From NCBI GenBank assembly GCA_964621165.1, contig CAZULC010000001.1, forward strand, positions 204,281 through 268,280: a DNA stretch of 64,000 bases, read 5' to 3'. Numbering within the stretch: the first letter of the stretch is position 1; each line of letters starts with the position of its first letter. This DNA comes from an uncultured Ruminococcus sp. Lineage in GTDB: Bacteria; Bacillota; Clostridia; Oscillospirales; CAG-272. Position numbers and translations under genes: made by a program. Below are positions 25,576 through 26,985 of this stretch, piece by piece. The notes under the pieces were generated by a model, which was not told the DNA's origin, searched no databases, and saw only the letters and a program-made list of their open reading frames with translations.

Positions 25576-25942
25576 CGAAGGAGAGTGAAGGTAACTTCGA
25601 AGAAGTTAGGAAATACCGAAGGGATCTCCGGGGGATGCGCTTCTCTAAAGAAGCTGTGCAAGAACTTTTAAAAGAGGATGCAATGGGGTCAGCTGAGCAG
25701 GAAGAGATTGCGGCTGCGGTTCTGCAGCTGAGTAGTAAAAAGTCCGTGACTATAAAATTTTTAACACCAAGGAATCAGGAATAGTTGAGGCGGCAGTCAG
25801 GGACCGCCTGGTTGGAGATAGCTTGCTGTCTACGTTACACAGCTTCCGCCCCCTGCCTGCCCACGCCGGATCCCGATTGCTTGATAGGGCAGTTATAACG
25901 TTTGGTCCTACAGCAGTTTTATCAGCGCGAGCAGGGGTGCCT
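25576..25942 (+). repeat. Family A repeat, copy A7 (directly after the dnaA stop)
   Basis: The leader TGACGAAGGAGAGTGAAGGTAACTTCGAAGAAGTTAGG is followed by the end module at 25631-25675. The interior is colinear with 18083 and 31402. Confidence 0.85.
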
Positions 25943-26277
25943 GACGTGGATAAAATCATGACGTGGGGAAGCTTGATTTTTTTATTTCTTTTCTTTCTTT
26001 TTTCTCTTTCCAATCCAAATCGCCGTTCTTCATTGCTCTTGATGCCAGACGTGCGAACTTGTCGTACAATTGTATTTTTGGACTTTTGTCCGATATGTGT
26101 TGGCTGGAATTTTATTGGCTTATTTTTAGAAGTGAATTTGTTTGATTTTTGTATTTTTGGACTTTTGTCTGGATAACGTTATTTTTCCATATGGGCGGTT
26201 TTCGGTGATTTTTCCACTTTGGGGAGCATGATGGCGGAACATCTGATGTTGACTTTTCAAATTCGATTTCAACAGGC

Positions 26278-26286
26278 TGTGGATAA
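26278..26286 (-). promoter_or_regulatory. Perfect DnaA box (TTATCCACA on the minus strand)
   Basis: Exact 9-mer match. Confidence 0.8.
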
Positions 26287-26857
26287 ATCTTGTGGGTTTT
26301 TGGAGTTTTCAACACGCTGTGGATTTCGATGTTGATAATTTATTGCTCCGGCCCGAAAAAATATTAATAAATTCTGTTTTTTTACCCTTTTCTTTCCCTT
26401 CCTGTTCATTTTTGACTTTTGTTTAGCTTTGGAAAACTCCGGGCAAACTGATTTTATTTCCCTCGGATTCCGTCGATTTCCCCATGGCTTTGGATTTCTC
26501 TCGATTTAATTTTTTGGGGTCCGGTTCGACTTTGGATTTAGAATAACAGGAAAAAATTTCAAAGGTTTTGATGTGGAAAAGTTTTATTTAGTAAAATATG
26601 GAAGATATGGCGGTTTTTGGAAGTTTGGAGGTCGTTTTGGGGTTAAGGTTAGCGTGAGTTTGGGAGTGGATTTCCCAGGAATTTCCTAAGGGTATTTTGG
26701 AAAAACGAAAAAAATGTTTGGGGAGATTGACTTTCAGGTTGGTTTATGTTATATAATATAATGTAGGAAAGTTTTTGAAATTGAAAGAGATCGAGAAAAT
26801 GTTCTCTCAAATTGGAGTTTTCCCTGTTTTCCGCAGGCTCTACTCCTGCTACTGCTG

Positions 26858-26910
26858 AATATTATATTGATTTATTATATATTTTATATATTTCTTTATT
26901 TTTATTTAAG
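26858..26910. other. AT-rich candidate DNA unwinding element
   Basis: AATATTATATTGATTTATTATATATTTTATATATTTCTTTATTTTTATTTAAG lies about 75 nt upstream of dnaN. Confidence 0.5.
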
Positions 26911-26985
26911 AAGAGAGCGGGAGAAAACGAAGGGGAAAGCGCAAAGAGGCGGGAGAAGTTATGATTACGAGCAAGGAGGATTATT

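Follow-up and report, generated by a model that had tools for sequence, protein, structure and literature searches.

A conserved candidate replication origin in the long dnaA-dnaN spacer of an uncultured Ruminococcus, without a switch in strand composition

Does the long spacer between dnaA and dnaN in an uncultured Ruminococcus sp. hold the chromosomal origin of replication (oriC), and do forks still leave it in both directions? The spacer lies at 25576-26985 of a 64-kb stretch of contig CAZULC010000001.1, the whole of which is called the window here. It measures 1,410 bp, in agreement with the unusually long spacer of 1.4 kb noted in a first-pass annotation of the same DNA. The gene order rnpA-rpmH, dnaA-dnaN-gyrB-gyrA, diverging from the spacer, is syntenic with relatives. 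These relatives were found by scans with DnaA and DnaN, and represent syntenic loci (designated by L numbers) in metagenome-assembled genomes of uncultured Clostridia and Oscillospiraceae. Two independent short-read contigs from SRR10165008 match 23721-25867 and 25851-28360 at 100% identity, and the spacer sequence is therefore not an assembly artefact. Judging from its sequence, the locus is very probably the oriC of this clade, homologous to and built like the unwinding regions of Bacillus subtilis and Clostridioides difficile. We also lean, with less confidence, towards a spacer that works today as a monopartite origin of the basal unwinding system (BUS) type, with an anomaly in strand skew perhaps due to another cause that 64 kb do not reveal. 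The module itself is evidently still under selection, and a conventional bidirectional origin in this particular genome is uncertain.

The candidate unwinding module occupies the dnaN end of the spacer. Two tandem DnaA boxes on the + strand (26818-26835) are followed by the GC-rich 4-bp sequence GGCT (26836-26839, +), by six DnaA-trios (26840-26857, − strand) and by a putative DNA unwinding element without strand (26858-26910). The trio-proximal box, TTTTCCGCA at 26827-26835, has 2 mismatches to the consensus, lies 4 bp from the trios and points toward them. The second tandem box, TTTTCCCTG at 26818-26826, has exactly 4 mismatches. The trios read CTA CTC CTG CTA CTG CTG on the + strand, corresponding to 3'-GAT GAG GAC GAT GAC GAC-5' on the − strand, with the G and A invariant. 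The unwinding element directly follows the trios and ends 75 bp before dnaN. It was initially described as a 53-bp block of nearly pure A/T, and with 94% A/T it is indeed the AT-richest 53-mer of the window as well as the site of the least stable 40-mer in the 64 kb. With both strands scanned, the window has a single trio run that leads into a stretch of at least 80% A/T. Under published search rules for the BUS, one box may have up to 2 mismatches and must lie 0-16 bp upstream of the first trio, pointing toward it; a second, tandem box may have up to 4 mismatches, and a minimum of three consecutive trios must carry a central A on the bound strand (3'-GAT-5' consensus). The gap between box and trios averages 4 bp and is GC-rich (PMC8287927). 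The layout in the window satisfies these rules, with the second box at the borderline of the permitted mismatches. Further upstream, a promoter-like AT-rich element on the + strand (26727-26757) consists of TTGACT at 26727-26732, a 19-bp spacer and TATAAT at 26752-26757. The promoter scan made no call at 26727-26757 because of the 19-bp spacer. The block following the TATAAT-like element is conserved up to 26817 and ends in AAATGTTCTCTCAAATT. The promoter-like element points toward the unwinding element and dnaN. On the other side of the unwinding element lie the conserved GAGAGCGGGAG (26913-26923, +) and the dnaN leader, which extends on the + strand to 26985 with a ribosome-binding site AAGGAGG at 26973-26979.

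The basal unwinding system in the incC region of the B. subtilis oriC has reportedly been described in a series of studies between 2016 and 2023 (Richardson 2016, 2019; Pelliciari 2021, 2023). The spacer resembles incC in its location between dnaA and dnaN, and the module shares with the BUS the tandem boxes, the short GC spacer, the 3'-GAN-5' trios and the AT-rich unwinding element in the same order and orientation. Both also have a distal box sub-region, and the residues of DnaA for trio capture are conserved. The window DnaA matches the B. subtilis DnaA (8btg) with E = 9e-90, and in this alignment N187, I193, R202 and E228 are retained, with V in place of I190. The two systems differ in that the consensus-like box of the window is the trio-proximal one with a 4-bp gap, rather than the upstream one with the common gap of 13 bp. 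The distal boxes of the window lie 250-670 bp away, and the core extends over ~1 kb, compared to only ~100 bp of native DNA upstream of box 6 in B. subtilis. In contrast to B. subtilis, the window has no cluster of the incA/incB type upstream of dnaA, carries a repeat at the dnaA edge and shows an unswitched skew. The C. difficile oriC2 is likewise a clostridial dnaA-dnaN spacer with 5-9 boxes, in which a CTACTA-type trio run, 5'-CACCTACTACTATTACTACTATGA-3', directly precedes the experimentally mapped unwinding region (PMC7561715). However, the C. difficile origin is bipartite and unwinding in vitro needed oriC1, whereas only 1-2 promoter boxes are found between rpmH and dnaA in the window. 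An organization unlike the compact bipartite oriC of Bacillus had been proposed for the spacer. This stands for the missing upstream cluster but not for the unwinding module, which is Bacillus-like with tandem boxes, a GC spacer and six trios before the AT block. The dispersed distal boxes are also compatible with B. subtilis incC (PMC6669920).

The distal boxes form a clear cluster. Scans of the 64 kb with the DnaA box consensus TTATCCACA allowed at most 1 or at most 2 mismatches. At the stricter threshold, 26 matches were found against 11.6 expected, and five of these fall into 25945-26580, all on the − strand (Poisson P = 5e-6 for five per 700 bp). At the relaxed threshold, the densest 700-bp stretch of the window lies in the spacer with 12 sites. 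The perfect box at 26278-26286 was already recognized in the first-pass annotation and is present on the − strand. The one-mismatch boxes reported at 25945, 26168 and 26572 were also recovered, together with another at 26330. The box at 25945 is located inside the 3' end of a repeat copy (A7) and is probably a chance match, because other copies read CGTGGAGAA or AGAGGAGAA there and the homologous position is not box-like. The distal cluster covers 26168-26580 on the − strand, based on box matches, and is collinear with L003, L050 and L007. Its boxes are TTATCCAGA at 26168, TTATCCACA at 26278, AAATCCACA at 26318, TTATCAACA at 26330, TTTTCCAAA at 26428, AAATCCAAA at 26489 and 26531, and TTTTCCACA at 26572. 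The core of the cluster consists of two head-to-head box pairs (26262-26286 and 26304-26327) located 40 bp apart, and the conserved form of the pairs is TTTCCACA nn CTGTKGAWAA. The near-consensus half is the plus half in the relatives and the minus half in the window and in L057; the plus-strand halves in the window read TTTCAACA. The better boxes of the window face left, whereas the boxes of the relatives face right. An inverted box cluster was considered and rejected, as the alignment shows a collinear cluster in which the opposite half of the head-to-head pairs was kept near consensus. The distal boxes of B. subtilis function whichever way they point and from as far as several hundred bp, whereas boxes 6 and 7 are not reversible (PMC6669920).

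The origin appears to be monopartite because there is no box cluster upstream of dnaA. None was detected in the window, L003, L005, L007 or L009-L014. In L047, a pair of neighbouring boxes lies ~500 bp before the part of dnaA that was matched. The 335-bp region between rpmH and dnaA in the window holds a single one-mismatch box and a single two-mismatch site, in line with the earlier remark that only a weak box is visible there. The one-mismatch box, TTATCCAAA at 23800-23808 (−), is found just upstream of the −35 element of the dnaA promoter (TTGACT-17-TATAAT, 23813-23841, +). It is probably a site for dnaA autoregulation and not an oriC1 box cluster; clostridial oriC1 regions contain 9-19 boxes (PMC7561715). 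The dnaA promoter of L057 carries two plus-oriented TTTTCCACA boxes where the window has a minus-oriented TTTGGATAA. Compared with a bipartite Firmicute oriC, the upstream cluster (oriC1/incAB) is missing and the dnaA-dnaN cluster with an unwinding element (oriC2/incC) is present. Monopartite origins of ~0.5-1 kb with many boxes, placed wholly between dnaA and dnaN, occur in the Actinobacteria Streptomyces and Mycobacterium. The spacer resembles these as a single long dnaA-dnaN origin with many boxes. The actinobacterial origins differ, however, in phylum and box consensus, and they coincide with the centre of replication.

The module is collinear in six related spacers (L003, L007, L049, L050, L057 and L058), with L057 and L058 being the closest relatives (DnaN 86% and 88% identical). 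In L003, the module reads TTTTCCACA GTTCCCACA CGGC CTACTGCTGCTACTGCTG, followed by an AT-rich stretch. The trios of the window are identical at 17/18 positions to both L003 and L057. In relatives at 57-68% identity, the remaining spacer cannot be aligned except for the box-pair core and a TATATAAT element, which is conserved in L003 and L050. Compared to L057, identity reaches 94% for the trios, 83-100% for short conserved blocks and distal boxes, 84% for the block 26750-26817, and 72% each for the unwinding element and the box-pair core, with 26-48% in the intervening spacer segments. Four-fold degenerate sites are 54% identical in dnaA and 46% in dnaN. The identities of the elements are far above these values, which points to purifying selection on the spacer elements. 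The dnaA-dnaN spacer is 1,191 bp long in L003, 1,431 bp in L007, 1,812 bp in L057, ~2,640 bp in L050 and >2,076 bp in L049, and ranges from 540 to 710 bp in relatives of ~50% identity. Without the inserted repeats, the origin core measures ~0.9-1.2 kb in each clade member.

How such an origin might operate can be outlined by homology. Starting from dnaA, the layout begins with a ~380-bp repeat (the A7 insert, proposed to play no role in initiation), followed by a CT-rich region with the GGACTTTTGTCC motif. Next come ~8-10 distal DnaA boxes around the two head-to-head pairs and the conserved TATAAT-like element. The layout ends with two tandem weak boxes, the 4-bp GC spacer, six trios and the 53-bp unwinding element. 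DnaA on the distal boxes might raise the local concentration of DnaA by looping, and DnaA on the trio-proximal box might seed a filament of ATP-DnaA. On the − strand, the filament would then capture G and A within every 3'-GAN-5' trio, and might open the adjacent AT block for helicase loading.

Several observations weigh against a spacer from which forks still depart in both directions. The + strand is G-rich on both sides, with a GC skew of +0.11 in the left 10 kb and +0.19 in the right 10 kb. A linear model of + strand GC skew at four-fold degenerate sites of 42 window genes, with gene orientation and side of the spacer as terms, yielded 0.257 ± 0.042 − 0.148 ± 0.043 × gene orientation − 0.002 ± 0.040 × side. 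Within the 64-kb window, there is hence no polarity switch at the spacer (side effect −0.002 ± 0.04), and the residual sum of squares is 271 for uniform polarity versus 536 for a switch at the spacer. The pooled + strand skew at four-fold sites (GC4 skew) is 0.12 for + strand and 0.39 for − strand genes on the left, and 0.10 and 0.42, respectively, on the right. Seven left minus-strand genes (histidine kinase, response regulator, DUF4342, mnmE, jag, yidC and rnpA) have conserved synteny with dnaA. These genes resemble the lagging-strand genes on the right (p = 0.58) and are unlike mirrored right leading-strand genes (p = 0.0009). The left + strand genes are less informative, as the block of rsmG, noc/parB, parA and parB (5.7-10.4 kb) is inverted compared to the canonical order. 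Applied to L010, L011, L012 and L014, the same model gave an intercept of ~0, an orientation term between −0.14 and −0.18 and a side term between +0.16 and +0.22, which is a normal origin signature of similar magnitude. The sign of the skew changes at the homologous spacer in L003, L009-L012 and L014. A plain comparison of skew at third codon positions (GC3) with L003 and L007 was uninformative because those genomes have almost no replication-linked term. The polarity extends into dnaA, with a GC4 skew of +0.49 in the window and +0.30 in L057 versus −0.18 to −0.40 in L003, L007 and L005. The non-coding box cluster has a GC skew of +0.25 versus −0.11 to −0.27 in ten relatives. A segment of reversed polarity just left of the unwinding element was considered and discarded, since uniform polarity gave a better fit than any of the segments tested. 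Read literally, these results make the + strand the leading strand on both sides of the spacer, and the local strand composition argues against forks having left the spacer in both directions. The boxes and one relative add to this. The trio-proximal boxes are unusually diverged and weak in the sub-lineage of the window, differing from the relatives at 6-8/18 positions compared to 0-3/18 among those relatives themselves. L005 (DnaA 67% identical) has a dnaA-dnaN spacer of only 195 bp (10932-11126) without an origin, and neither a box cluster nor a trio module was found anywhere on its 11.7-kb contig. Either L005 has its origin at another place, or gaps in its contig are misleading. L005 is a precedent for a missing origin.

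The alternatives to a functioning origin in the spacer have to account for both the module and the composition. One of them holds that the spacer is a long dnaN promoter and leader region with chance box-like words and an AT-rich UP-like element. The position of the AT block, 75 bp from dnaN and downstream of the TATAAT-like element, would fit such a leader. However, the density of boxes is highly non-random, the order of box, spacer, trios and AT block is conserved across relatives with otherwise unalignable spacers, and the same architecture was experimentally validated in B. subtilis and C. difficile. We consider this explanation hardly credible. A possible but doubtful account for the window and L057 is that rightward forks pass through the whole dnaA flank despite a selected BUS, with the origin being either unidirectional or initiation having moved. 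As a corollary of this account, strong enrichment of G and T on the + strand appears to have worn down DnaA boxes that are C-rich and in plus orientation. Selection would then have re-created boxes in the opposite orientation where orientation is free (i.e., in the distal pairs and the dnaA promoter), while the orientation-locked trio-proximal boxes decayed. The divergence rather than flipping of the trio-proximal boxes is consistent with the irreversible boxes 6 and 7 of B. subtilis (PMC6669920).

If initiation has moved, the ancestral oriC would no longer be the site of divergence, and replication would start further to the left, past about 12 kb or even outside the window. In that case, the module would be kept for the control of dnaA and dnaN, for DnaA titration or as a dormant origin. 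Such a relocation would explain the uniform + strand polarity on both sides, where relatives switch, and its extension into dnaA and the non-coding box cluster. It would also fit the erosion of the orientation-constrained trio-proximal boxes, the distal boxes re-made in the G-rich orientation and the evidence from L005 that a clade member can lack an origin at this place. On the left flank, 11/18 genes point rightward, and cumulative G−C across the window reaches its minimum near 2 kb (2065). Yet a dead origin should decay, and the trios, unwinding element and box pairs are far above neutral identity compared to L057. A G-rich dnaA is found in both the window and L057, yet the module is conserved between them. 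The 64 kb contain no other box cluster or trio-plus-AT module, and the switch near 2-4 kb is supported by two genes only. Relocation is, in our assessment, unlikely. Alternatively, the origin might fire but be effectively unidirectional, with the leftward fork blocked or never established and the left flank copied by the fork coming round the chromosome. This would reconcile a selected BUS with a polarity that is identical on either side as far as the unwinding element. Directly to the left of the box cluster are arrays specific to the sub-lineage, with CT-rich tracts and the GGACTTTTGTCC palindrome (2 copies in the window, 4 in L057). But no terminator protein or Ter-like site was identified, the arrays are without demonstrated function, and the idea rests on the composition of one 64-kb window. 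We know of no precedent for unidirectional replication in a bacterial chromosome of this kind, and regard a one-sided origin as quite improbable.

As a sequence feature, the spacer provides a textbook-type origin in an uncultured, Oscillospiraceae-like clade, which is useful for annotation. The BUS survives in genomes with a repeat-packed intergenic space. The anatomy itself is of a known kind; the unusual part is the unswitched polarity combined with the re-orientation and erosion of boxes. Two signals that are normally concordant are in conflict here, as a selected unwinding module comes without the switch in strand bias seen in relatives. If this holds genome-wide, the locus would offer a naturally occurring example, in a Firmicute, of an origin that has relocated or of replication that is asymmetric. 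As a natural experiment, it would further reveal which origin elements tolerate re-orientation under mutational pressure.

The edge of the spacer next to dnaA is occupied by a copy of an intergenic repeat family (family A). This copy, A7, is a ~380-bp insert that separates the origin core from the dnaA stop codon (25577-25958, +). It begins 2 nt past the stop codon and can be aligned with other copies to about 25958, as the description of a family A copy directly after dnaA had implied. The 29-nt core of the family, GCGCTTCTTGAAAGAAGCTGTGCAAGAAC, occurs 18 times in the window versus 0 expected, with 13 copies on the + strand (5302, 12117, 16223, 18143, 25637, 28340, 31445, 32826, 44939, 46693, 52815, 60433 and 63339) and 5 on the − strand (5602, 16528, 29043, 33118 and 61771). 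Family-A copies occupy most of the longer intergenic regions and often start within ~30 nt of a stop codon. Three elements of ~330 bp are flanked by inverted cores (5302-5630, 16223-16556 and 32826-33146), whereas copies of the A7 type have a core at one end only. A structured RNA was rejected for A7, with no Rfam match at the gathering threshold or at E < 10, a fold z-score of +0.86 (i.e., no unusually stable fold) and compensatory changes at 4/75 predicted pairs. A coding function was rejected as well, as the 70-aa open reading frame (ORF) at 25572-25784 has no Pfam match and its frame is broken in other copies. Intergenic repeat families such as REP/BIME, RUP/BOX and the Correia-type miniature inverted-repeat transposable elements offer a comparison. 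Family A is similar as a short non-coding repeat of ~330-380 bp, found in most intergenic regions and in both orientations, with inverted-core borders in some copies. It differs in that no transposase or known RNA family was found and in being confined to the sub-lineage of the window.

Repeats next to the origin core are not restricted to family A. Relatives whose DnaA is at most 69% identical lack the family, but L057 has it, with another family-A sub-type at the same position. The repeats adjoining the core belong to different families in the window, L057, L058, L007 and L050/L049/L002, amounting to at least five lineages. L002, L049 and L050 have a different, internally palindromic repeat family of ~850 bp directly after dnaA. 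In L050, ~850-bp repeats are found on both sides of the core (1364-2290 and 3123-3927), and in both L049 and L050 a copy also separates the unwinding element from dnaN, so that repeats flank the origin core on either side. L007 has another element beside the core (8812-9330), and L058 has another inserted element between the unwinding element and dnaN. The suggestion that a mobile-looking repeat is tolerated right next to the origin therefore extends to relatives with other repeat families. The dnaA contigs of relatives are often only ~2 kb long, which suggests that short-read assemblies break at such intergenic repeats.

Between the A7 repeat and the box cluster lies a T/C-rich tract (25966-26022, +). 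Two copies of the 20-mer TGTATTTTTGGACTTTTGTC, with the palindrome GGACTTTTGTCC inside, lie at 26071 and 26150. The direct repeat had been placed at 26071 and 26149, of which the first position holds and the second is shifted by one. TGGATTT words, earlier described as several, occur four times in the spacer, all on the + strand. TTTTGGACTTTTGT repeats containing the palindrome GGACTTTTGTCC are present in 2 copies in the window and 4 in L057 (3090-3600), where they sit in CT-rich units of ~100 bp. The CT-rich tracts with copies of the GGACTTTTGTCC motif (25966-26169) are specific to the sub-lineage of the window and L057.

dnaA (23887-25575, +) encodes 562 aa with a long acidic, low-complexity domain II and the Pfam domains Bac_DnaA and Bac_DnaA_C. 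dnaN (26986-28251, +) encodes 421 aa with three DNA_pol3_beta Pfam domains. Both proteins are longer than usual for housekeeping proteins. Pfam support or a recognisable translation identifies rnpA (22814-23266, −), rpmH (23417-23551, −) and, after dnaN, a RemA-like gene followed by gyrB. ORFs within the spacer have no Pfam match and were rejected as genes. The gyrB ORF as listed (29047-31401) starts inside a repeat core (29043-29071) and shows homology only from residue ~66, so that the true start is probably near 29242. mreC extends past the edge of the window.

The block with an inverted gene order left of dnaA reads rsmG (5683), noc/parB-like (6794), parA (8353) and parB (9446) on the + strand, whereas the canonical Firmicute arrangement upstream of dnaA runs the other way. 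Inverted family-A cores at 5602-5630 (−) and 12117-12145 (+) bracket the block (5631-12116), an arrangement suggestive of an inversion that was mediated by repeats beside the origin. There is no mnmG, and a two-component system (12561-15553) is found in its place. Closer to the left end of the window, a 618-bp AT-rich intergenic region (2806-3423, GC 0.36) separates dus from a flavin-reductase gene. It contains six copies of a ~40-nt motif, GGATTATCTTTTTTTCAAAAATTTATTGCAGAATTGTTAA, at 2863, 2984, 3108, 3167, 3226 and 3345, spaced by 59 or ~120 bp, and resembles an array of iterons or operators. Cumulative G−C is lowest (2065) next to this array; the two genes on its left show skew of the lagging type but are too few for a conclusion. 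Tandem repeats also occur elsewhere in the window. infB (36985-40077, −) contains a 12/24-nt tandem array in its 5' part (39425-39856), where the AT skew reaches −0.7, and the 993-bp gap between infB and nusA holds three 105-nt tandem repeats (40095-40410). Six 69-nt tandem repeats (11521-11959) are located inside the ORF 11167-12063, with each unit carrying a recurring GGCGACGTATACGAAGGCG motif.

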